From assembly GCA_047611905.1 (NCBI GenBank), contig JBLFWZ010000001.1, positions 15,455 through 79,454 on the forward strand: 64,000 nucleotides of DNA, given 5' to 3'. Within the stretch, counting starts at the first letter, position 1. Each line of letters begins with the position of its first letter. The translations under genes and the position numbers were made by a program. Of this stretch, positions 5,870 to 53,293 are shown piece after piece. The notes under the pieces are model-generated. The model made no database searches, was not told where the DNA came from, and saw only the letters and a program-made list of their open reading frames with translations. Origin of the DNA: Gammaproteobacteria bacterium. Its GTDB lineage: Bacteria > Pseudomonadota > Gammaproteobacteria > Ga0077536.

Positions 5870-5885
5870 GCCGCCCTCATTAAAC

Positions 5886-6083
5886 GAGTTGGTTCCCTAG
5901 CGTCTATCGACAATAGGGTGAAACGGGAAGTCGGTGAATTCGCCAAGCGATTAAAACCCGCTAGCAATAATTCCGACACTGCCCCCGCAACGGTAAGTGA
6001 GCCGCTAAATCAATCAGCCACTGTGCATGCATGGGAAGGCGATTTGGCATCGACAAATGCTCACGAGTCCGGAGACCGGCCCA
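5886..6083 (+). promoter_or_regulatory. cobalamin (AdoCbl) riboswitch
   Basis: Hallmark conserved segments read directly: AATAGGGTGAAACGGGAAG, GGTGAATTCGCC, CCGACACTGCCCCCGCAACGGTAAGTGAGCC, GCCACTG and B12-box-like GAGTCCGGAGACCGGCC; located in 5' leader of a TonB-dependent btuB. Confidence 0.85.
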
Positions 6084-6096
6084 CTCGCTTTTTTCC
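6064..6096 (+). terminator. riboswitch expression-platform intrinsic terminator
   Basis: Hairpin CGAGTCCGG-AGA-CCGGCCCACTCG (includes the B12 box) followed by CTTTTTTCC; about 110 nt before the btuB start codon. Confidence 0.55.
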
Positions 6097-6202
6097 GATG
6101 ATTCGCGGGGCGCGAAATTACCGGTCGTCTACTATTGTGGCGATCTCCCCCTGTGAATCGAACCCGATGATCGCCCGCGGGTGTGCGGCGAAGGGGAGTA
6201 TT

Positions 6203-8008
6203 GTGTTAATTCAAACCGTCCTGTTGTCGGCGCTTGCCGCCGTTTTATCCGTTGCTGTTTTGGCCGCCGAGTACGAGGATGAAGTTCTCGTCACCGCAAC
6301 CCGCCAACCACTTGCACTGAAAGACGCATTGCCATCTTCGCAAGTGTTTACGCAAGACGATATCGAAAGGCTCCAGCCGAAAGATTTACCCAGCCTGCTC
6401 GGGCGCATGAGTGGCGTCAGTTACCGTGCCTCAGGTGGCCGGGGGTCCGTGAGTGGCGTGTTCATTCGTGGCGCATCGACGTCGCAATCGATTATTTTGG
6501 TCGACGGCGTGCGAACGAGTAGTGCCACGATTGGTGCCACGGCGCTGGAAGGCATTCCTCTTGAGTCAATCGAGCGTATCGAGTTAGTCAAAGGACCATT
6601 GTCTGGCTTGTACGGCGCAGATGCGATCGGTGGGGTCATCCAGATATTCACCAAGCAAGGTAAGCAGCAGCGCCTCACCCCAGAAATTCATGCGAGTTAT
6701 CGCACGGACGATACACAAGAATACTCAATCGAAGCTGGTGCGGGTAACGAGCGCGGTAGGGTTCATGCGACTTTTGCTTTCGAGAATTCTCAAGGCATCG
6801 ACCACACGTCGATCAAGACAGAAGGTAATGCGGATCGCGATGGCTTTGATGAGTTTGCCCTGAATGTGTCTGCAAGCTATCGAATCCTCGATGAACTTAA
6901 CGCTCAAGTTAATTTCCTGCGTACTGACGCCTACAGCGAGTTCGATAACCTATTCGGAGACGGCACGGGTTTCGATGCCGATACTCAGGTCGAGACTAAC
7001 GCCTTGAAGCTCACCTACACGCCGAGCGAAAAATTGCGTTTGAGTTTCGGCGCAAGTCATTTCGTCGATGAGGCCGTGACACCGGCATTTTTTTCCGATA
7101 TTACCACTCGTCGGACGACTTACAATCTGCAAATCGATTACCAAGTTCACGATAAGCATTCAATTACCCTCGGAGCAGAATACTACGACGACAAGGTCGA
7201 TACCTTGGATAATTTCGTCGAAACCTCGCGAGATAACATCGGTGGTTTCTTCCTGTGGCAGCGACGTTATGGAAAATTATCGGCCGTTGGCAGCGTGCGC
7301 TACGACGACAATGAAGCCTATGGCGATGAGACAAACGGTAGTGTCGCACTGAAGTATGACGTTTTTGAAAGTTTAGCCGCAGTGGTTAGTTACGGCACCG
7401 CGTTTCGCGCGCCGAGCTTTAACGAATTGTTTTTTCCTGGTTTTGGCAACGTGAATGTCAGGCCGGAAGAATCGGAATCGTTAGAAGTTAGTCTGAAAGG
7501 TAACCACAGGGATGTTCATTGGCGGATCAGCGGGTACTACACGGACGTGAAAGATCTGATCGGATTCGATTTTGCGACGTTCACGGCAAACAACACATCT
7601 GAGGCGACCTTGAAAGGGGTCGAAGCGGAAGTGTCCTATTCCTACGCCGACTGGTTTTTTAGCGCGAATATGAACTATTTGAATGCACGAGACGATCGAC
7701 TTGATGTGTTCCTGGACGACCGCGCCGAATTTACAACCAACGTCGACGTTGGTTGTAAATTCGGTCGGCTGGATCTCTCTATGGACCTGCAAGCAGAAAG
7801 TGGACGCCACGACCGAAGTGGTACCGAGATCGATGGATTCGTTGTTCTAGGAACCGGCATCAACTATCGTTTTAGCGAGCGGTTTCGTATCGCCGCACGC
7901 CTCGACAATATTTTCGATGAGGACTACACCTTGAACTTAGCCACAGCGCGCGATGTATTTCGCACCTATGGCCGCACCGGTCTCATCAGCCTGCACGCAG
8001 CATATTGA
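6203..8008 (+). CDS. btuB: TonB-dependent vitamin B12/corrinoid outer-membrane receptor
   Basis: ORF 5918..8008; start placed at in-frame GTG 6203 after AAGGGGAG RBS so that the riboswitch is leader; signal peptide then TonB box DEVLVTATR, plug domain (IERIELVKGPLSGLYGADAIGGVIQIFT) and beta-barrel; about 600 aa like BtuB. Confidence 0.85.
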   Translation: MLIQTVLLSALAAVLSVAVLAAEYEDEVLVTATRQPLALKDALPSSQVFTQDDIERLQPKDLPSLLGRMSGVSYRASGGRGSVSGVFIRGASTSQSIILVDGVRTSSATIGATALEGIPLESIERIELVKGPLSGLYGADAIGGVIQIFTKQGKQQRLTPEIHASYRTDDTQEYSIEAGAGNERGRVHATFAFENSQGIDHTSIKTEGNADRDGFDEFALNVSASYRILDELNAQVNFLRTDAYSEFDNLFGDGTGFDADTQVETNALKLTYTPSEKLRLSFGASHFVDEAVTPAFFSDITTRRTTYNLQIDYQVHDKHSITLGAEYYDDKVDTLDNFVETSRDNIGGFFLWQRRYGKLSAVGSVRYDDNEAYGDETNGSVALKYDVFESLAAVVSYGTAFRAPSFNELFFPGFGNVNVRPEESESLEVSLKGNHRDVHWRISGYYTDVKDLIGFDFATFTANNTSEATLKGVEAEVSYSYADWFFSANMNYLNARDDRLDVFLDDRAEFTTNVDVGCKFGRLDLSMDLQAESGRHDRSGTEIDGFVVLGTGINYRFSERFRIAARLDNIFDEDYTLNLATARDVFRTYGRTGLISLHAAY

Positions 8009-8106
8009 CCGTCCTAGTTCGGAAATAGTGAGAACCGCTGGATAATGCCCGTCGGCAAGCGAACGCGACTAAGCAGCTATTAGCTGTTCTATCGCTAGGA
8101 GTTGAA

Positions 8107-9618
8107 ATGACCGATTGTCTGATGATTCAAGGAACGACTTCAGATGCGGGCAAAACGACCTTAGTCGCTGGCCTAGGCCGTGTGCTCGCCAGACGCGGTA
8201 TCAAGGTTGCACCGTTCAAGCCACAAAATATGGCGCTCAATAGTGCCGTTGCAATCGACGGCGGAGAGATCGGGCGCGCCCAGGCGCTACAAGCCATTGC
8301 TTGTCAAACTGAACCGTTGACCGATATGAATCCGATCTTGCTCAAACCTTCCAGCGACATCGGCGCGCAAGTTATCGTGCGAGGTCGATCGATCGGCAAC
8401 ATGGACGCGCGCGCGTTTCATGAATACAAACCGCAGGCTTTGCGCGAAGCGTTGCGGGCCTACGCGAATCTGGCCAAGCGTTACGACTTCATCTTGGTTG
8501 AAGGTGCTGGAAGCCCGGCCGAGATTAATCTTCGTGACGGCGATCTCGCGAATATGGGCTTCGCCGAAGCCGTCGACTGTCCGGTGGTATTAATTGCCGA
8601 CATCGATAAAGGTGGGGTATTTGCGCATTTGGTCGGTACCTTGGCGTGCTTATCGCTGAGCGAGCGTGCACGCGTGTGCGGTTTTGTCATCAATAAATTT
8701 CGTGGTGATGAATCGCTGTTGCAACCCGGCATCGATTGGTTAGAACGTGAAACGGGTAAACCCGTCTTCGGGGTGCTGCCATACTGGCAAGGTCTATATC
8801 TGGATGGAGAAGATGCGATCGATCAAGCGCAAGAGCTGGCGAGCGATCGCGATAGGATAAAAATTGTTGTTCCGGTGTTGCCGCGCATCAGCAATCACAC
8901 AGATTTCGACACCTTGCGTCGGCATCCGCAGGCAGAAGTGTGTTTTGTCGGTCCGAACCAGCCGATTCCAGCAGCTGATCTCATTATTCTGCCTGGCAGT
9001 AAGAACGTGCGGGCGGATTTGGATTGGCTTAAGCACTATGGTTGGGAATCTGCGATTAAACGTCACTTGCGTTACGCAGGACGTGTGCTCGGGATCTGCG
9101 GAGGTTTCCAGATGTTGGGGACTCGCATCCAAGACCCGTACGGGATTGAAGGTGCTCCGGGAGAGAGTGTTGGGCTCGGTCTTCTCGACATGCAAACAGT
9201 GTTCCACGAGGAGAAAATTTTAACGCGCGTAAAGGGCAAGTTGGTGTGCCTGGCATCGCAGCCCAACGTCGACGGCTACGAAATTCATTGTGGTCGGAGC
9301 CATGGCGCGGCATTGCGTTCGCCGGCGATAATATTCGATGATGGCACGTCCGATGGAGCGGTATCCGATGACGGGCAGATTATCGGCACTTATCTTCACG
9401 GCGTTGTTGATCATAGCGATGCAAACCATGCGCTGCTTGGTTGGGCCGGGGTTAAGGATCCGACTTCGCTTGATTTGAATGAGCAGCGGGAAATGGATCT
9501 CGAGCGCATAGCACGGGATATCGAATCATTACTCGATTTAGATCGGCTGCTACCTAAACGTAGTAGCCCTGCGCATCGCGATGCAAACCATGCGCCAAAA
9601 GCCGGTACCCACTTATGA
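8107..9618 (+). CDS. cobQ: cobyric acid synthase
   Basis: 503 aa; N-terminal [37 protein letters not shown] (CobQ/CbiP ATP-binding domain) plus C-terminal glutamine amidotransferase region; AGGAG RBS. Confidence 0.9.
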
Positions 9619-20878: not shown

Positions 20879-21544
20879 TCACGCCATTAAATCCGGCAAG
20901 CTCAACGGCGAGTCCGATGCATCAGGGGGCTGGTTCGCGTATTCATCATATTGGGCGGGCAACGCTTGGCGACCGTGCTTAAACTGGCGCGTGACGTTCG
21001 CAATATGATTGCCATGTAATTCTGCCGTTTCGATATCACTAGGGGGTGGTGCAAGTTCAGCTGGTTCATCGATATTTGCCTGCGCCATGACACCAAGATA
21101 ACCTGCCATGCGGTTCAGGTCGCGTTCGCTACCTTGGCTCGAATAATTGCCCCCTGTGATCCGCACAGGCACCCAGATCATGCCCATTTGGCTAGCGAAA
21201 GTGACGAGTTGCTGCAGGCAGGCAAGTTTGTCGCCGCTGCGCCCGGCAGAGACCGTGAAGCCACCAGAGATTTTGTTCATCCACAAGCGTTTTAACCACA
21301 CTTCGCCAGCGAGCTTCTCAATAAATTCTTTAAACTTTGCCGCTACGCTTCCAATGTAGGTTGGCGTGCCAAATATGATCGCGTCTGCGCTATGTAAGGT
21401 TTGCCAATGATCGTCAACGTCGTCGGTGTGGATCAACGCGACTTCGGTATCCGGAACGGATTGCGCACCGCGCTTTACCGCATGGGCAAGAGACTCCGTG
21501 TTGCCTTTGAAATTGCTAAAGTAGACGATTGCGATCTTGGTCAT
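20879..21544 (-). CDS. wrbA: NAD(P)H:quinone oxidoreductase, flavodoxin-like fold
   Basis: 221 aa; MTKIAIVYFS..., FGTPTYIG FMN-binding motif. Confidence 0.8.
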   Translation of the reverse strand: MTKIAIVYFSNFKGNTESLAHAVKRGAQSVPDTEVALIHTDDVDDHWQTLHSADAIIFGTPTYIGSVAAKFKEFIEKLAGEVWLKRLWMNKISGGFTVSAGRSGDKLACLQQLVTFASQMGMIWVPVRITGGNYSSQGSERDLNRMAGYLGVMAQANIDEPAELAPPPSDIETAELHGNHIANVTRQFKHGRQALPAQYDEYANQPPDASDSPLSLPDLMA

Positions 21545-22007
21545 TGGGTGACGCCTATTGGTTAGTAAATGAGGTCTCTACCCTATAGCTTTTTGGATAG
21601 CGATCGGAATTAATATGGTCGAGTTGTTTTTCGTCGTCGTAGGGCGCGAGAACGGAAACTATCCGGTTAGGATACAAGAAAGACAAGCACACTGGCGTCA
21701 GCCGGGGCACACGCTGGAAGCTCTTCAACTAATAAATAGCTTATGGATATTTTTAGTGCGAACATTTATTGCGCCGCTAGAAATTCAGCCCGCGTAGTAT
21801 TTGGTTCGGTTAACAACGTATTTGAAAACCACACGGCGTGCGCTATTTTTATGTGTGAAATTTTACCGCTTAAAGGCCTACGCAAGAAAAATGGCAGTGT
21901 TATAGTCGCCGTCGAAAGTGAGAAAATTTAAACGCGGCCGGTGGTGTTCTGTGTATCCCTACGGGGGCCGGTCTCTATGATAATAAATTGCCAGGGGAAA
22001 CTAAACT

Positions 22008-23474
22008 ATGCACGGAAGCCGATTCCTGAGCACACTCGGCTTGAGTATTTTTATCGCCACTCAAGCTTACGCAGCAACCGACGAGACAGAGTCGACCGGC
22101 AACAACACGCCGTTCAATAACCTCCAACCGTCGCTCGCGATTAACTACTTCGTTCAAGACGAAGGAGTTTTTCCATCACGAGGGGAGCCTAGCGATAGCT
22201 CGGGCAACGAGCTTAACTTGGGATTCGTGCGCGCTTTTGCGGGAAATTTTGCGCCGGGCAGGCAACTAGCTGATGGTCGAACAAAACCGATCCAAGACGA
22301 TACTGCCCTTTTTTCAATTTACGGCGCGGAGTTTGGCGGCGACGGGCGGACAGTTTTCAATCTACCTGATTTGCGCGGTAATGCCCCGCGTGGTTCGAGC
22401 GGCGACAGTGCTGAACTCGGTCTCAAGCGTGGCCAGAACAATACCGTTCTCAGATCGGCACAGCTCTATCCGCATAGCCACGAGATTTCGTAAAGTTCTT
22501 CTCCGACGACGAGTCCGGTTGGCCTAGGGCAAGGTTTTTCGAATGCCCAACAAACGACTGGTTTAAGTTACATCATCAACGCCACCGGCGAATTCCCGGC
22601 ACGAAGTGGAAATGGGTCGCCGCCTAGCAGACCGTTCATTGGCGAAGTCGCACTTTTCGGTGGCAATTTCGCACCGCGAGGATGGGCGCTCGCAGATGGT
22701 GCGTTGTTCCAAATATCCCAATTCGATGCGTTATTTTCAATTCTTGGGGCAACCTTCGGTGGCAATGGGCGGACGACGTTCGCATTGCCGGATCTAGATG
22801 GTCGGGTCGCGGTCGGCGCCGGTAGCGGGCCCGGTCTGTCGAATTGGCGCTTAGCAGAGAAGCGCGACTTGGTCGCGCAAACCCTCACATTGGCACAGCA
22901 ACCGAGTCATGATCATGATGTAGCGGACGTTCGTGATTCGACCAGCACATCGGGTAGCGAAAATCCGAGTGCTATCTCGACGACACAAGATGCGTTGGGT
23001 TTGAATTACCTTATCTAGCTTGGCGGACTGTATCCTTCAAGAGACCAAATCGATGGCAGATTTGTCGCCGGCGAGATAACCTTATTTACTGGTAATTTTG
23101 CGCCGGAACGCTGGGCAATCGCGGACGGTCAACTGCTAAATATTAGAGATAACGAGGCACTGTTTTCTCTGATCGGATCGATTTACGGGGGAGATGGGAG
23201 AAATACGTTTGCCTTGCCTGATTTGCGCGGACGTACGGCGATTGGCGCAGGTCTTGGCAGTGATGGAACCGTCTATCGACTTGGCGGGGAGTATGGCGCC
23301 GAGGAAATCTTCTTAACTGAGGAAAATCTTGCCGCACATTCACACGGCGTTCCTGCCATTGTACCGCTACCGGCCGCTTTTCCGTTGCTTCTTGTGGCAT
23401 GCACAGTGCTCGGATTACGCCGCCGGGGCGCGGGCAGCGCGAGCCTTCATGATGGTGTGCTAATTAAGGTCTAA
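22008..23474 (+). pseudogene. secreted triple phage-tail-collar-domain protein with PEP-CTERM-like anchor, interrupted by two in-frame stops
   Basis: One continuous frame: signal peptide (22008-22076), three tail-collar (MdpB-like) units (FIGEVALFGGNFAPRGW...ALPDL.GR motifs), TAA at 22491-22493 and TAG at 23016-23018, C-terminal VPAIVPLPAAFPLLLVACTVLGLRRR at 23349-23474. Track ORFs 22704.. and 23214.. start inside domains so are not independent genes. Confidence 0.7.
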
Positions 23475-23700
23475 GTCATGAGCTTGGGCTGACCGAGCAG
23501 CTCGCTTGTGTCGTGCTAGGGTGTGCGGGCCAACGATAGGTGCGCAACATTGCTACATGACAGATAGTGCGTGACTCGAGCTTATCCCGTGCGTCTACAC
23601 GCAAACGCGGCGTTCATGCTTGTTGATCGATTTATTTTGGCGAAAATATCGGAGTCGCCGATGATGACATTTCATTGAGTGTCGGCTTGAACTGCGGAAA

Positions 23701-24348
23701 TTAGCCACCACCGCTATTCATCCATTCTAATGTCGCTTCGCGACTTGCATCCGTCACGCTCTTTACAGCAGGATGGCGATAAACAATCTCACGCCACGCC
23801 TGCACTTTCGGACCGAATAGGGGCTTTCGATCAAAGACAGGCAAGAGCAATTCGGCGAGCGTAAACGTTGCGGGAAATGCGCAGTCCGCAATACTAAGTT
23901 TATTACCACATAGATACGGACTCGGTTCGATTAGCGACTCCATCTTGTCAATCCGATCCTGGAATTTATCTAAGTGACCGATTAGTTCGACCTCGTCTCG
24001 CGTTGTCGGATCGACATGCGCAAACGTACGACGCAGATGAGGTTCCAGCCAAATATCGTGGTAGCGTGCCATAAAGCGTTGTTGGGCTCGCTCTGCTGGC
24101 GTTCCGTATACCAGCGCCGGTTCGGGATATGTCTCGTCGAGATATTCGATTAACACATCAGATTCGCTGGACCGGAATTCACCATCGACTAATGCAGGAA
24201 TGGTCCCTAATGGCACGAGCTGCATATATTCTGGTGTGCTGTAGCCTCCAGGTGGTGGCTCCACGCGGTAATCGAGTCCTTTCGCCTCGAGTGCGATTCT
24301 TACTTTGGCGCTGTATGTGCTGATCGGAATTGCGTAGAGGATCATCAT
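23701..24348 (-). CDS. glutathione S-transferase family protein
   Basis: About 215 aa; GST N-terminal (ILYAIPISTYSAKVRIALEAKGL) and C-terminal domains; start (TTG 24354, ATG 24348 or 24345) uncertain. Confidence 0.7.
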   Translation of the reverse strand: MMILYAIPISTYSAKVRIALEAKGLDYRVEPPPGGYSTPEYMQLVPLGTIPALVDGEFRSSESDVLIEYLDETYPEPALVYGTPAERAQQRFMARYHDIWLEPHLRRTFAHVDPTTRDEVELIGHLDKFQDRIDKMESLIEPSPYLCGNKLSIADCAFPATFTLAELLLPVFDRKPLFGPKVQAWREIVYRHPAVKSVTDASREATLEWMNSGGG

Positions 24349-24405
24349 ATTCAATTCTTTTAAAAAAATTGCCGCATCGGCCCTTGGTAATGGACGATTG
24401 GCGAC

Positions 24406-25764
24406 TTATCGATAGCGTTGTGTCAATGCGCTAGCGCTAGCGCTCTCGTCTGCATCCGGTACGACGTCGCCCAGTTCTGCTATAGCTTGTTCAACTAAGG
24501 CGGAGAGGTTTTCTGGATCATCAAACTTCGTTTGGCGCCCGTCGTTTAGCGCAGCATTCATCATCGCACGCATTTTTCCATGCAAGGCCGAATTGTGGCT
24601 AATGTCATGTTCGTAACCAAGCTCCGCAAGACGTCGTTGCAGCACATAGGCCGGCGCCCAACTCGGCATGATTTGATAGCCGGCTTTGCGTCCGATCAAT
24701 TTAGGATCGAGATCGCGCGGTTCGTCAGTTTGCTCGAAGTACTTGTCGACATACAAATAGGCCCGTTCACCAACAACGGGCGTGTTTGGAGGTATGTCGA
24801 TCTGATCATGAATCCGCCACATTCGCTCCGCGACTTCTTGAAATTTCTCAGTATTAAATAGACGTTGTACATGCGGATTCCGCGCGCGCATCAAGTTGGT
24901 CAAAAACATGAGCGCAGAGCCGTGCCCACCTTGGGCTGCTTGCGGTGTAAAGCCCGACCAGACGCCATCACCACCGGCAAGAATACATTCCAAAGTGGCA
25001 GCGTCTTCCGTGCCGTTGGCAGTATGTGGATGAGCCAGAATCTTGCGTGGTTTCGGATGATAGTGACGCATCATTTTGACCAAGGCATAAGTCTCGAACG
25101 GAAACCGTGTGCCTTTTACATCCTCAAAAAGAATGCCCGTGATCTCTTCTTCGCCGAGCATTTTAATAATTTGTAAGAGGTAGCTAGGATCTTCATCGTA
25201 GGTGTCGAACGGATCGGCGAGACGCACATAAATGCGGCCCCGACGATCAGTTTGCGATGGTAAAAGTCTTCGGTATTCGCGAATGTGTTCACATAAATCG
25301 GCCAGCATTTTCCGATTGTCGGTACCAATCGCGGCTAGGGTCGCCGGCCGGGTTTCAACTAACAAAATGGTATTTGGAATGCCGTAATGAACGGTTTGGG
25401 TTGCCGCCGGCCCCATCGGAAAAGGCTGGCCGTCAGTTAATGGTTCCACCGCGACGGTGGTGAAAAATGGGTCTAGAGAGTGCCCGCCGTTGACGAGATA
25501 TTCCATAAATCCGTCCGATGCTGACGGAAAGCCGAAAAAATTTGATAATCCGAAGTCATGAAATCCTATATCTTGAGCCATCTCGTATAAGGCGATTTTG
25601 TCGTCCAAGGTGTGGCCGAGATAGGATGATAAGGTCGCCTCGCGAGCCGACATATCAATTAAATAGGGTTCTGCGTTTCGAAGAATGTCGATTCTTTCTT
25701 CGATGTGAGAGACCGTTGCATCGAGCACCGCTTGATCAGTGCTGTCGATGTCCGGATCTAGCAT
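24406..25764 (-). CDS. DRE-TIM metallolyase (HMGL-like, isopropylmalate/homocitrate-synthase-like) family protein
   Basis: Start set at ATG 25764 (MLDPD...) with GAGGGAG RBS; HPHTANGTEDAATLECILAGGDGVWSGFTPQAAQGGHGS resembles the HxH...G.G.RAGN metal-site region of HMGL-like enzymes. Function unknown. Confidence 0.5.
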   Translation of the reverse strand: MLDPDIDSTDQAVLDATVSHIEERIDILRNAEPYLIDMSAREATLSSYLGHTLDDKIALYEMAQDIGFHDFGLSNFFGFPSASDGFMEYLVNGGHSLDPFFTTVAVEPLTDGQPFPMGPAATQTVHYGIPNTILLVETRPATLAAIGTDNRKMLADLCEHIREYRRLLPSQTDRRGRIYVRLADPFDTYDEDPSYLLQIIKMLGEEEITGILFEDVKGTRFPFETYALVKMMRHYHPKPRKILAHPHTANGTEDAATLECILAGGDGVWSGFTPQAAQGGHGSALMFLTNLMRARNPHVQRLFNTEKFQEVAERMWRIHDQIDIPPNTPVVGERAYLYVDKYFEQTDEPRDLDPKLIGRKAGYQIMPSWAPAYVLQRRLAELGYEHDISHNSALHGKMRAMMNAALNDGRQTKFDDPENLSALVEQAIAELGDVVPDADESASASALTQRYR

Positions 25765-25912
25765 TCCAATATCTCCCTCAAATCTCGGCAATCAAATTCT
25801 AGCAGCGCCAGGAGACGCTGCTGAGATGATGATAGCGCTTTTTTTCGGGAAAAGTACGCTGCTTCGAACCTGGTGTGGACCGCCTGGAACGAGGGCTTGG
25901 TTTAGCTTACGA

Positions 25913-39465: not shown

Positions 39466-40220
39466 TCAATACTTTGCCTGTAGCCAGTGCCAGCTGTAGC
39501 CGGCACAACCGGCCGCGTAGGAATTTGTCCTCGCATCTTTGGAATATAACTCACGACGCAGTGGACTTAAGCGGCGGGCAACTGCCGCAGCTTCCGCGAA
39601 GAATCGGGCTGCGGGGCCGGTCTCATGGTCACCTTCGCTTCCCAAGCTATTAGTAGACCGGGGAGGTTTGAAGCTGGGGCGGGCTTTGCTCTACCCATAG
39701 GACAAATCAGCCTCACCTTAGGACGAGTTCGAGCGCGAGGAGTCATTCCGATGAGCGTATTCGATGATGATATCGAACGTATTGGTCGAGGGTGGGTCGA
39801 TATCGGGTTTTAACTTTGCGATGTTAATTTACGCGTCCGATTAATCCACCGGTTGTATCGAGGCTTGAACTGGCGCTTGATCCTTGACGGCCGGAATATA
39901 GACGTACACCGCGGCTCAAATATTAAATGCAGGTACCCTCGAAATCGGATCAATCGAACGTGCAAATCAACAGCTTCAAGTCCTGTCGCCACTCCCATCC
40001 CGCGTTTACGATCTAACCCACGTCAATTACACTGCCGGAAATAGTAGTTACCGGTGGTCCTAAGTAAGTGTTAAGCAGTCGAGGCCCGGATGGAAAAGCG
40101 GACTGTCGTTTGCATTACTCGCGACCGTCGCATAACGACCGAGGCGGTGTGAAAAGAGGATCGTCAGCGTATCGTTGATGTGAGATCATGTCGTGGTAGC
40201 AACGCACGAGAAAATAGCGG

Positions 40221-41234
40221 ATGAAACGGTTTATCGAAGGTGACCACCGAGATCAGAAAACGCTGTTACCGGATTGTCTCGAAGATTTCGTATCCGAAGA
40301 TAATCCTGTGCGGCTAGTTGATGTCTTTACCGATGGTCTGAACCTGGAGCAACTGGGTTTTGAAAGTGCGTCGCCGGCGGCAACGGGTAGACCGGGCTGT
40401 CATGCTGCCACACTGCTGAAGCTTTACGTCTATGGTTATCTCAATCGGATCCAATCAAGCAGACGCCTAGAGCGCGAAGCGCAACGTAACCTGGAGTTGA
40501 TGTGGTTGCTACGACGCTTGGCACCCGACTGAAAGAAAAACTCGTAACGGCGAAGGCGCAGGCCGAGAAGCTCCAGGACATTGGCGAGCAACTGAAAGGC
40601 ATTCCTGGTGGTCAACTATCGTTGACTGATCCGGACGCTCGCTCGATGGCAACCAGTGGGCGCGGCAGTGGTGTGGTGGGTTACAACGTTCAGATAGCAG
40701 TAGACAGTAAACATCACATGATAGTTGCCCATGAAGTCGCCAATGTGGGCCATGACCGTGCATCGCTTCATACGATGTCGGAACAGGCGCGTGACGCGAT
40801 CGGCGAACCCGGCTTAATCGCAATCGCTGATGGGGGGTTACTACAGCGGCAAAGAGATCGTCGCCGGTGACGCGGCCGGCAGTTAGACACTAACTACCGA
40901 AGACTCACACCTCCTGTAATCGATCAAAGGGACGCTTTGAGAAACAAGATTTTCGTTATCTCTCGGAAGTGGATGGATACGAATGCCCGGCGGGCGGGCG
41001 CGCGATCTATCGATATGCAAGTGAGGAGAAAGGTCAGGCCGTTCGCAGGTACTGGTCACCGGCTCTGGCTCCTGCTTCGCTCTACCTCCCCCATCCATGG
41101 GGTCGACGCACTTTCCGACTAAGACGCTACCGAAGGTCAGTACTGAGATGAGTTTGCATGTCTTGACGTATAACTTGAAACGTACGATGAAGATCTTCGG
41201 AATTGGAACCCTGATAGGGGTGGTCGGGGCTTGA
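40221..41234 (+). mobile_element. degraded IS1182-family insertion sequence (transposase pseudogene)
   Basis: N-terminal MKRFIEGDHRDQKTLLPD...YLNRIQSSRRLEREAQRNLELMWLL, frameshifted middle (DPDARSMATSGRGSGVVGYNVQIAVD), out-of-frame CPAGGRAIYRYASEEKG piece and C-terminal EMSLHVLTYNLKRTMKIFGIGT tail; about 1 kb, i.e. internally deleted relative to a typical IS of this family. Confidence 0.7.
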
Positions 41235-41578
41235 GTCCCGATCTATTTTCTGGTTGGCGACGTTGTATTAGCGAAATATTACTCGCTAAGATATTTGCGC
41301 GAAGTTACGATCGTCTGCGACGGGACCAAATCTCTCTTTTCACACAGCCTCGACCCGTAACGGACCGTCGCATACCGACAAAGTTATCTTGCCGCAAACT
41401 CTAAAGCCGTGTCCCAGGACAGCGACAAAAGAGCCTGTTAGGATGAGCTGCAAGATGATTTCGCAAGGGTGCGAACATGTTGCCAGTCGCCTATTGGCAG
41501 GGAAGCCAGTGCCGGTGTTGCTGCGTCGCACTATGTCTTGAGTACGTAACCCACCTTACGAGTGAGTCACTGAGTAAA

Positions 41579-45624: not shown

Positions 45625-45752
45625 AGTCGTCAGTACGCAATCCGATAAAGCAGAACTGCAGGACACGCATGAATTGATGCAGCGCCGATCTTCGTAGCCT
45701 CGCGCAGTGGCAGCAGCAGATAAATCTAACGGGTTGATTCTAAAAATCGTAA

Positions 45753-45983
45753 CTTTTTTTATTTACGATGAGATCATCACGAGATTTCAGCGATGCTGAG
45801 GCCGCGCTGTCCTTGCTCATCGAAACGTTGGGCGAAGAGAGAATACTGTTTGGCACGGATTATCCTTTTCCTTCGGGCGACACGACACCAGGTAAATTAA
45901 TCGCAAATCATGGGGCTTTGAACGACGAGCAAAAAGACCGCCTACTGAAAGGGAATGCTAAAGCGTTTTCTCGGTTGGGTTAG
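45753..45983 (+). pseudogene. C-terminal fragment of amidohydrolase-2 (PF04909-like) gene
   Basis: Only about 75 codons open after a TAA; FGTDYPFP motif typical of amidohydrolase-2 C-terminus; no N-terminal part present. Confidence 0.55.
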
Positions 45984-46744
45984 TAGAGAGGAACACGATG
46001 CGGTTCGTATTTGTACACCGCGGCTAGCACTCGAGAATGTCAAACCGCCTCGGACTTTGGCGCTTGATGCGAATGCCAAGTGATCACGAGGCGCGCGTAA
46101 CTAACTGTGGTCGCAAAGTCCCGAGCCGACAGACAGCGTCAGAGAACGCCGAGGCCTAGATAGGTTAAGAATTGTTGGATACGTGCCCTCTGTTAGGGGT
46201 CTATCCGTTTGGCGCGGTATCTCCCGGCAGGTGTCTAACAAAGCACGAGGTAGGAAACCGCGGAGTCGAGCTTCTCCGCAAGCGCTGTGGAGCCAAGATC
46301 ACAAAACATGACCGTAATTTGACGGCGCTTGGCTTCAGGTGGTAACGATTGCATGGCCTGCTTCGTAGCAGATTGCTCTACAGGTCGCCCAGCGTCTCAT
46401 CGTCAAGTTCAAACTCCCGCTTGAGCGCTCGACACGACATACGCCCAGACTGTTGGAGCAATGCGGTGGCTTGTTTGGCGATTTCGGAAAACTTCACCGA
46501 CTCGACCCCCTCTCACTCGGTCGGGACATAAAAGCAGGAAAGTCGCTTCAAGACAATCATATGACGGGTTAGGACGCGAACACTGAAATTGAGCGTCCGA
46601 TTGTATATATCTGTACTCAATGACTGGCGTCGCGATGGCGTCCGCCTAATAACATTAAACAATCATCATCCATCGGGGATAAAACCACGCCTACCGGAAA
46701 CGGAATGGAGATATTTTCGCTTACAGCAACGTCATTTATAAACT

Positions 46745-46818
46745 TCCCGAGCGAAGGCGACGTTATGTCTGCGACAAGTAATCCCGAGCGAAGGCGACGT
46801 TATGTCTGCGACAAGTAA
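46745..46818 (+). repeat. perfect 37-bp tandem duplication (2 copies)
   Basis: CCCGAGCGAAGGCGACGTTATGTCTGCGACAAGTAAT at 46745-46781 and 46782-46818; duplicates RBS, start and first six codons of ORF 46802. Confidence 0.9.
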
Positions 46819-47194
46819 TTTAGAGGATGAGGTGACGCGCGAAATAACCGGCGCGGTCTTGCTTACGATGAACTTCAAAACGACTCGCATGAAAATCGGA
46901 ATTTATACCAGCGCCGCTAGTGTATTTTCGGAACAGGGTGACTACTTAAACGGTGAAGGCAGTGGATGTTCTGAAAACACTGGCGATCACAAATGGCGAG
47001 TGCGCGGCCACGACATATTGTCCGATGGAAGCATTATTGCGGCGGGAGGCGAAATGCGTCTTGCAACCCGGACCTATAGCGCCATTGAACATACCGAGAA
47101 TGTCTCTTGTTGGCCGATTTGCGTCCGTCCAAACATCATTTCCTTGTTGCTTGAACTTCCGTTTAGCGGAAGCGGGTTGAAGAGCCTATGGTAA
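46802..47194 (+). CDS. hypothetical protein (130 aa)
   Basis: ATG preceded by AAGGCGA; no recognisable domain; lies in a region of gene debris, so may be a decaying gene. Confidence 0.25.
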   Translation: MSATSNLEDEVTREITGAVLLTMNFKTTRMKIGIYTSAASVFSEQGDYLNGEGSGCSENTGDHKWRVRGHDILSDGSIIAAGGEMRLATRTYSAIEHTENVSCWPICVRPNIISLLLELPFSGSGLKSLW

Positions 47195-47481
47195 ATTAAT
47201 ATCCATCCGTCAGCATTGCCGGAAATGATAATTATCGGCAATGTTGACGGATGGAACAAATCCACGCCAGTCGACCAAAACATCTCTCAAGATTTCAGAT
47301 ATCTCCGTCCCATGATGAATTAGCAGCGCACCTAACAATGGGATCAAGACGACGTGTTAAAGTCGAGATCCTTCGGGAGACTTCGCTCTTTCCCCTCGGG
47401 AAAGGCCACGATGACCGGCGGGTTCTGAGACTTACATCGAACCCCGCTCACTGGCGTTATGAAACTTCGAGGGACGTTCGC

Positions 47482-52238: not shown

Positions 52239-52868
52239 CTATTGTTCTCGCCAACTAGTGTCATCCTCGGTTTCAGTTTCTTCGTCGTCCCAGCTGTAGC
52301 GTTTTTCGATCGGCGGAGGATCTAAGTGTCGGCAGTAGATGGCCAGCAACACGCCCAAGCCCGCGCCACACAGATGCGTTTCAAACGAAATCGTCGGGTC
52401 GTGCGGGAACAGTCCCCAAATCATGCTGCCATAGAGGAAAAATACGATCATCGACAAGGCGATCGCTTGCCGATCCCAACGCAGCGCACCAATCGCGAAA
52501 ACGAAAAACATCATGCCGAAGCTTAAGCCGCTCGCTCCGTAATGCGACGTCTCGCGCGCAAACAGCCATACGCCGATCTCTGTCCCGAAATACAGCATCG
52601 GTAAAGCAATTTTTGCCGATCGAGGGTAACCGTAAAGTAGAGCCGTGCCGAGGACCACAATGGGTGGCGTGTTCGAAGCTAAGTGCGACCACGATCCATG
52701 AATTAACGGCGCAAATAAAATGCCGTCGAGTCCGTCGAACTGGCCGGGTGCAACGCCGAATCGACCGAGATCTAATCCAAAGGCGGCCTCGATCGCTTTG
52801 ATCAACCACAACAATACGGCAAACGAGACAGCCCTATGGAAAGCTGTACTGAGGTTCCGTTCGCGCAT
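52239..52868 (-). CDS. rhomboid family intramembrane serine protease
   Basis: Multi-TM; GASGLSFGMM (GxSG) and downstream His in TM helix; start uncertain (52868, 52910 or 52997). Confidence 0.65.
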   Translation of the reverse strand: MRERNLSTAFHRAVSFAVLLWLIKAIEAAFGLDLGRFGVAPGQFDGLDGILFAPLIHGSWSHLASNTPPIVVLGTALLYGYPRSAKIALPMLYFGTEIGVWLFARETSHYGASGLSFGMMFFVFAIGALRWDRQAIALSMIVFFLYGSMIWGLFPHDPTISFETHLCGAGLGVLLAIYCRHLDPPPIEKRYSWDDEETETEDDTSWREQ

Positions 52869-53293
52869 GGTTTGATCCGAATTTGAATAGCTCACGATGC
52901 TTACCAACATGGGGTTTGGACGTTTTATTTTCAAGCACCGACGAGGGAGCGGCGCTATCCATGGCCCATTGAGCGTTAATGGCACACTTTGCACCAAACT
53001 TAGCGGGATCTCCCGGGTCTTGGGTCCACCACTTGAAGCGCCCGTCTGCCAGGAGTCGTTTGTAAATGCAGGTGTGCCGCGCTAAGGCTCCCGTTGCATA
53101 CACTCATGGCCGAAACACAAACGACAACCGACGATTCGATCGAATTGACTATCTACGGTTTGCTAGGTTTCTACTTCAATTTATCCATCGTTCGGCGACA
53201 AACTAATAAATTTGCCAGTCGTGCACGCAGGCCAGCTTAGATAGGTTAAATTGGTCCCCTCCAGCGAAACTAACAACGACGGGAGGAGGGGAC

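Follow-up and report, generated by a model that had tools for sequence, protein, structure and literature searches.

The locus lies at positions 22008-23474 on the forward strand of the window, i.e., the whole stretch of DNA of 64 kb that was analysed. Translation of the whole locus in one frame yielded 488 codons and a terminal TAA. It revealed exactly two internal stops, a TAA at 22491-22493 (codon 162) and a TAG at 23016-23018 (codon 337), and neither a frameshift nor an indel, which confirmed the description given in an earlier note on this DNA. The open stretches of the frame comprise 163, 175 and 152 codons, and they are the sole such coding triple within the 64-kb window. Hundreds of intact proteins can be aligned with the read-through translation from one end to the other, a collinearity that is far beyond chance. 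The features of the locus are listed below. Alignment A2 comprises 85 homologues and the window sequence (86 sequences), P0001 and P0077 are close relatives of the read-through, and L001 and L006 are Logan contigs.

21822-21849: weak sigma-70-like site, a promoter match no better than the shuffle expectation.
21993-21998, forward strand: Shine-Dalgarno-like AGGGGA, 9 nt 5' of the ATG at 22008, read from the sequence.
22008-22073, forward strand: signal peptide, residues 1-22 (MHGSRFLSTLGLSIFIATQAYA), predicted by inspection; the N-termini of the homologues are equivalent.
22107-22181, forward strand: C0, an N-terminal copy of the C-terminal strand motif of a unit (TPFNNLQPSLAINYFVQDEGVFPSR), conserved throughout the fused family.
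22221-22379, forward strand: Collar unit 1, residues 72-124, degenerate (without GW..DGQ), a Pfam Collar stretch.
22473-22481, forward strand: HxH motif 1, H156-S-H158; H156 is invariant and H158 at least 90% conserved (86 sequences).
22491-22493, forward strand: in-frame TAA, codon 162; Q at this position in P0001 and P0077, stop shared by Logan contigs L001 and L006.
22530-22607, forward strand: C1 strand motif (QGFSNAQQTTGLSYIINATGEFPARS), from alignments A2 and A3.
22632-22802, forward strand: Collar unit 2, residues 209-265, a Pfam Collar stretch.
22908-22916, forward strand: HxH motif 2, H301-D-H303, invariant (86 sequences).
22968-23042, forward strand: C2 strand motif (SAISTTQDALGLNYLI-stop-LGGLYPSR), which holds the second stop, from alignments A2 and A3.
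23016-23018, forward strand: in-frame TAG, codon 337; Ala, Ser or Asp in the homologues, stop shared by Logan contig L006.
23061-23231, forward strand: Collar unit 3, residues 352-408, with the best Pfam Collar stretch (residues 355-410).
23337-23345, forward strand: HxH motif 3, H444-S-H446, invariant (86 sequences).
23361-23426, forward strand: VPLPA-CTERM-like sorting tail (VPLPA, hydrophobic helix, RRR), a match to TIGR03370 below the cut-off.
23427-23474, forward strand: 15 extra residues after RRR (GAGSASLHDGVLIKV) and the terminal TAA, by comparison with the homologues.

The three tail-collar units that had been proposed from the sequence were recovered by a Pfam search, in which Collar (PF07484) matched the read-through in three stretches (E=1.1e-64, 214.7 bits versus a cut-off of 24). 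The N-terminus (MHGSRFLSTLGLSIFIATQAYA, followed by A) combines a basic n-region with a hydrophobic core and closes with A-x-A, and thus looks like a Sec signal peptide. The AlphaFold2 (AF2) model contains a helix at residues 4-19 in this region, and both inspection and model agree with the signal peptide claimed before. C0 matches the C-terminal ends of single-domain relatives. The earlier note had called an N-terminal motif, LAINYFVQDEGVFPSR, stray; this view did not hold, because the motif is a conserved element of the family, with Q40, P41, L43 and G53 each conserved to at least 90% in the 86-sequence alignment. At the DNA level the units share only short repeats of 14-22 nt. Recent tandem duplication or recombination was considered as the source of the stops, and it was rejected because the repeats between the units are only this short.

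The C-terminal tail was also compared with curated families. Residues 452-473 (VPLPAAFPLLLVACTVLGLRRR) gave the only NCBIfam match of the read-through, i.e., VPLPA-CTERM (TIGR03370). The whole protein scored 13.8 bits and the tail by itself 18.1 bits, both below the curated cut-off of 25.35. The tail of the window, VPLPA-AFPLLLVACTVLGL-RRR, is at the same position as the tails of homologues that do pass, e.g., P0016 with 39.1 bits and P0085 with 30.3 bits (VPLPA-CTERM) and P0007 with 25.2 bits (PEP-CTERM), all above the curated cut-offs. The AF2 model shows a helix at residues 454-475. In the window 15 residues follow the basic cluster, versus 0-11 in most homologues, and the pLDDT drops below 50 at residues 483-488. 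The parts of a PEP-CTERM-like tail are thus present in homologous position, but the window sequence itself does not reach the curated score and continues beyond the basic cluster.

The read-through was searched against 5.8 billion clustered proteins, and 8,000 candidates were scored. At least 1,429 of these candidates are homologues at E≤1e-5. Most of the best 120 are intact, with a length of 456-515 aa; the identity is 39-57%, the query coverage is 88-98% for most, and many of them carry a precomputed PEP-CTERM Pfam match. A tail of the PEP-CTERM type was present in 85 of the 85 aligned homologues, and the complete plan in all 84 full-length ones. The family consensus starts with a signal peptide and TGxTGGGQPxxNxQPSLxxNYxIxLxGxFPSR, continues with three repeats of Collar, HxH and NMQPSLxLNYxIAxxGxFPSR, of which the last ends at HxH, and closes with VPEP, IPAP or VPLPA, a hydrophobic stretch and an arginine cluster. 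The alignment of 86 sequences has 23 invariant columns, all of which are retained by the window. Of the six HxH columns, five never vary and the sixth is conserved to at least 90%, and the window has all three pairs. By its end-to-end collinear alignment, from the signal peptide and C0 over the three Collar units to the tail, the window sequence is a member of this family; the uninterrupted frame of a functional member is lacking, due to the TAA at codon 162 and the TAG at codon 337. None of the fused homologues examined from genomes has an internal stop.

The distribution of the family is broad. A GTDB scan with one genome per species revealed relatives in at least 593 of the 600 stretches listed, and the taxa include Gammaproteobacteria, Alphaproteobacteria, Planctomycetota, Acidobacteriota, Bacteroidota, Cyanobacteria and even Bacillota. 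The source annotations read "tail fiber protein" or "microcystin-dependent protein", and there is no family name. Therefore, the fused triple-Collar plan with a PEP-CTERM-type tail is common and belongs to a large, unnamed family, and its earlier description as an unusual architecture has to be given up in view of the at least 1,429 matches. In a literature search no paper was found that combines "tail collar" with PEP-CTERM, and the fused family seems to have been characterised by nobody.

The closest protein, P0001, has 477 aa and is 57% identical over 93% of the length; it is encoded on a 50.7-kb Logan contig (SRR23287150). The partial protein P0077 is 55% identical to the read-through, and the nearest relatives, at 57%, 55% and 50% identity, are all fused. 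P0001 and P0077 have in common with the window a degenerate unit 1 without the GW..DGQ core, an LYPH.H motif and a VPLPA tail in which an A-C pair is conserved, and the intact P0016 likewise has no GW..DGQ core in unit 1. The loss of this core had been taken as a sign of decay; since intact close relatives have lost it as well, the degenerate unit 1 is a trait of the subfamily.

The codons at the positions of both stops could be compared with the same relatives. At the TAA, P0001 and P0077 have Gln, and the P0001 gene has CAA, which is one base (C>T) away from the stop. In place of the TAG both relatives have Ser, encoded by TCG in the P0001 gene, again one base (C>A) away from the stop. In the 85 homologues this column contains Ala in 76 cases, Ser in eight, among them the closest ones, and Asp in one.

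An allele without the stops was searched for in several collections. No near-identical intact allele was found among the 5.8 billion clustered proteins, with 57% identity as the best match. A GTDB genome scan with window-specific peptides revealed neither an intact allele nor an orthologous locus, and a JGI metagenome scan for intact alleles yielded only relatives at 40% identity. Look-ups of the exact protein led to the source MAG, to one Logan run and to a short JGI contig ending before the gene, and to nothing else. The locus of P0001 (L002) shows no synteny with the window. Thus, the comparison of orthologous loci that the earlier note had proposed did not yield an intact version.

Taken together, these results indicate that the locus is most probably a recently nonsense-inactivated pseudogene of a widespread, uncharacterised envelope family with three Collar units and a PEP-CTERM-type tail. 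The earlier note had ranked recent pseudogenisation first and programmed read-through last, and the evidence agrees with this order. The simplest changes would be CAA to TAA at codon 162 and TCG to TAG at codon 337, after which translation would end after 161 residues and the remaining two thirds would not be independently translatable. The public annotation lists two "microcystin-dependent proteins" of 161 aa and 104 aa (MFT4560302.1 and MFT4560303.1); these are fragments of one pseudogene, and the annotation needs to be corrected.

An alternative is that the stops are artefacts of sequencing, of assembly or of the MAG consensus, and that the real gene is intact. The source is indeed a metagenome-assembled genome, and apart from the stops the frame is perfect and all family-invariant columns are kept. 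However, contigs of a different assembler (Logan, SRR28416755) have the same bases: they are 100% identical to the window at 20912-22497 and 22473-25657, L001 carries the TAA, and L006 carries both stops. An assembler-specific artefact is thereby excluded, while the reads of SRR28416755 are possibly not independent of those of the MAG. In addition, some 50 further long ORFs in the window run without interruption, and substitution errors in a short-read consensus are rare, so two errors that both create a stop in one gene would be a strange coincidence. Taken as a whole, an artefact is unlikely.

It is also conceivable that the first ORF (22008-22493, 161 aa) is in use as a secreted, functional single-unit protein, perhaps as a homotrimer like the single-domain MdpB. 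This ORF retains the ribosome-binding site, the signal peptide and one Collar unit with HxH, and single-domain Collar proteins are numerous. Yet it ends before C1, which is present in every single-domain relative (...NMQPYLAINF.IALQGLFPSRN), its unit is the degenerate one, and it has no sorting tail. No homologue of such a truncated shape was found among the best matches. Overall, this possibility is regarded as quite improbable.

Programmed read-through or recoding of the TAA and the TAG would yield the full-length protein, and it would account for a frame that is kept over 1.46 kb and for downstream units that hold the family-invariant residues. The stop codon usage of the window speaks against it. 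Long ORFs in the window end with TAA in 22 cases, with TAG in 17 and with TGA in 11, so the two codons in question terminate 39 of 50. A reassignment of the genetic code was also rejected, because TAA, TAG and TGA each serve as the terminator of ordinary long ORFs in this window. Two different stop codons would have to be suppressed, no tRNA gene, and hence no suppressor tRNA, was seen in the 64-kb window, no outstanding repeat or structure is located near the stops, and the fused homologues examined have no in-frame stop. Read-through is thus very improbable.

Three separate genes at the homologous place in related genomes had been named by the earlier note as an argument against one broken gene. 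Three-gene arrangements do exist, but only among distant relatives (35-40% identity). These are encoded as three tandem genes of about 172-200 aa at no fewer than 44 loci among those returned by the GTDB scan; examples are the cluster of Sulfidibacter corallicola (8010-8531, 8553-9071 and 9081-9593 on L012) and that of Stappia taiwanensis (L016). The clusters encode single-domain MdpB-like proteins, with COG4675-type naming. Every gene opens with an ATG of its own (MSEPF[LVI].E[IV]R...) and closes after FPSR[NHG], and none has a signal peptide or a sorting tail. In 20 of 26 clusters the three genes are in one frame, a figure that is not trusted because the 80 loci were ranked by tblastn score, which favours in-frame clusters. 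A one-to-one match of the units of the window to the three cluster genes was rejected, because every unit is closest to the middle gene.

The clusters are cut elsewhere than at the stops of the window. The frame of the window is open across all three junctions between FPSR and the next unit, whereas the stops are four residues past HxH motif 1 and in the middle of the LNYLI-x-LGG strand. After the TAA the first ATG, GTG or TTG is a TTG at 22704, 70 codons further on and inside Collar unit 2, and after the TAG it is a TTG at 23214, 65 codons further on and near the end of Collar unit 3. The lack of a start for 65-70 codons after either stop shows that the pieces are not separate genes. As the frame is open at the cluster boundaries, is interrupted elsewhere, and has starts only inside Collar domains, the window contains a disrupted fused gene. 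A gene fission into three separately translated pieces that assemble as a heterotrimer, for which the three-gene loci and a demonstrated three-gene heterotrimer of a virophage (PMC12724248) could be put forward, is hardly credible with stops away from the natural boundaries, with first starts inside Collar domains, with pieces 2 and 3 lacking a signal peptide, and with the nearest relatives being fused. The chance that the gene is still alive, be it that both stops are suppressed at useful levels or that a fused gene has been caught while splitting into reassembling subunits, is very small; if true, the locus would be a naturally occurring transition from one form of the family to the other, fused and three-gene.

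The preferred reading, a recently inactivated fused gene, was further compared with the pattern of sequence conservation. At columns that are at least 85% conserved, the three segments of the window have 7, 10 and 4 departures, versus 8, 9 and 4 in the intact P0001, so the two are similar in this respect. When only the 75 columns with at least 95% conservation are considered, however, the window has seven departures, the most of the 85 full-length sequences (versus a mean of 1.2, a maximum of 5, and 3 in P0001). Three of the four window-specific departures, G283A, G287D and P328D, lie between the two stops, and G287 is invariant in every sequence but that of the window. This is a weak sign of relaxed constraint on the window copy, which would be consistent with a recent loss of function.

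The neighbouring genes encode a DUF1329/LolA-like protein, an FMN-dependent NAD(P)H dehydrogenase, a GST, a cupin, an SDR, a MarR protein and an indolepyruvate oxidoreductase; the locus lies between the FMN reductase and GST genes. Only one Collar gene is present in the window, and no phage genes were found among the window ORFs scanned, so that the gene does not lie in a phage structural neighbourhood. Further decayed genes elsewhere in the window are in line with the inactivation: transposase (IS) fragments were observed in two frames at 40221-40870, as well as a remnant of an amidohydrolase at 45768-45983, of which only the last 64 positions are left. No exosortase was found among the ORFs examined in the 64 kb. 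The polytopic proteins of the window are FecCD, a LicD-domain protein and a rhomboid protein; the latter (52239-52997) was considered as a sorting enzyme and rejected, because it is not a rhombosortase (29.9 bits versus a cut-off of 84).

The possible function of an intact family member was approached by profile searches and structural modelling. The family profile matched the long tail fibre of cyanophage A-1(L) (8kec, E=4e-11) and the short tail fibre gp12 of T4 (1ocy, E=4e-6), and in the former match LPSHQHGIP of 8kec aligns to HxH motif 2. The AF2 model of the read-through has a mean pLDDT of 91.3 and a pTM of 0.85 and fits one compact body. Among the viral proteins of BFVD none matched the whole fused fold (TM at most 0.22). 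In the tips of the tail fibres gp37 and gp12, three chains contribute their HxH motifs to an octahedral Fe or Zn site (PMC6116203). In the virophage DSLV2, three consecutive PF07484 proteins co-purify as a 1:1:1 heterotrimer, which binds to Synechococcus cells, with LPS as the modelled receptor (PMC12724248). Based on the profile matches, the gp12/gp37 site, the DSLV2 heterotrimer, the presence of three HxH motifs and the single body of the model, members of the family probably fold such that a single chain mimics the trimeric tip of a tail fibre.

According to this proposal, the intact protein would be exported by Sec, and its three units would fold together and mimic the interwoven trimer of the tail-fibre tip within one chain. 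The three HxH pairs could then form one six-histidine metal site, comparable to that of T4 gp12 and gp37. The order of the parts, C0-N1-C1-N2-C2-N3, would represent a circular permutation, in which the N-terminal C0 strand completes the last unit. An exosortase-type system would sort the protein or anchor it at the cell surface, where it may serve as a glycan-binding or adhesin module and would probably bind a glycan such as LPS.

Taken alone, the locus is of minor importance, being yet another gene hit by nonsense mutations in an environmental Gammaproteobacteria MAG. Its family is the more worthwhile subject. An exported single chain with three Collar units and an exosortase-type tail is encoded by thousands of bacteria from many phyla, and caution is needed not to take the architecture as rare.

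A comparison with known systems shows which features are shared and which are not. With PEP-CTERM and VPLPA-CTERM signals (TIGR02595 and TIGR03370), the window shares VPLPA, the hydrophobic helix and RRR in homologous position, but the score of its tail stays under the cut-off, and 15 further residues come after it. With the fused family, represented by P0001, it shares the same order of parts from end to end, including the degenerate unit 1 and the VPLPA-type tail; it differs by two nonsense codons and by the 15 extra residues after RRR. The three-gene MdpB-like clusters consist of the same unit of Collar, HxH and NxQP...FPSR, with 35-62% identity per unit, and they also occur in sets of three. 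In contrast to the window, they are separate genes with their own starts, and signal peptide, sorting tail and permuted C0 are all absent from them.

The phage tips (T4 gp12, 1ocy and 5lye; 8kec; T4 gp37) resemble the window in their Collar homology and the HxH metal motif, and in the virophage DSLV2 three Collar chains likewise form one binding module with LPS as the proposed receptor. The difference is that these are three chains at the ends of long virion fibres, whereas the window encodes one chain, a cellular exported protein, in a chromosomal neighbourhood of metabolic genes. The fused family appears to be a permuted counterpart, made of one chain, to the three-gene clusters and to the trimeric tips with which phages bind their receptors.

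Two contigs of the Logan assembly of SRR28416755, L001 and L006, meet at window positions 22473-22497, directly at the TAA stop codon of the broken triple-Collar gene. One contig ends and the other begins within 25 nt, and the overlap has a length of 25 nt rather than k-1. The junction is probably a low-coverage break, but there may also be a local polymorphism near the stop codon.

The following features were found elsewhere in the window:

40221-40870, + strand, DUF772 / DDE_Tnp_1 transposase ORF pair
45768-45983, + strand, 71-aa ORF, C-terminal piece of an Amidohydro_2 protein (E=1e-11)
24406-25791, - strand, 461-aa ORF without a Pfam match
52239-52997, - strand, rhomboid-family membrane protein, NCBIfam best match rhombosortase, far below the cut-off
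5873-6098, + strand, cobalamin riboswitch RF00174 (109.5 bits)

The transposase ORF pair is located in an ORF-poor stretch (39466-41476). The two ORFs overlap in different frames. DUF772, a domain of transposase N-termini, was matched with E=4e-11, and a part of DDE_Tnp_1 with E=2e-4. The pair looks like a frameshifted and truncated IS transposase, a second decayed gene of the window. A further ORF-poor stretch (45625-47250) contains the 71-aa ORF. Its match is limited to the final 64 of the 289 Amidohydro_2 positions, and therefore it is the C-terminal remnant of a gene. A Pfam search with the next ORF (46802-47194, 130 aa) gave no match, and the same was true for the 461-aa ORF, which is located directly downstream of the GST gene.

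The rhomboid-family protein reached only 29.9 bits for rhombosortase versus a cut-off of 84 bits, and therefore it is not the enzyme that would sort the Collar protein. A 696-aa ORF (5918-8008) is listed with a GTG start that overlaps the cobalamin riboswitch, and thus its real start is probably located further downstream. The next genes encode an adenosylcobyric acid synthase and a FecCD permease.

Many distant relatives of the Collar gene are organized in three-gene MdpB-like clusters, in which short spacers separate the genes (L012 8010-9593, L016 7959-9629, and about 20 other loci). All three genes share one reading frame in 20 of the 26 parsed clusters, a count drawn from 80 loci ranked by tblastn score; as this ranking favours in-frame clusters, the excess may be an ascertainment effect. 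The common frame and the short spacers explain that a single tblastn alignment crosses two stop codons. The L012 cluster is from Sulfidibacter (Acidobacteriota) and the L016 cluster from Stappia (Alphaproteobacteria), i.e., from distant phyla. The N-terminal sequences of corresponding genes are nearly identical, e.g., MSEPFLAEVR[IM]VGFNF.PRGW.FCDGQILPINQNQSLYSLLGTTYGGDGRT, which suggests that the whole cluster was transferred horizontally. A real prevalence of the in-frame organization would be a hint that genes of the Collar family have fused and split repeatedly.
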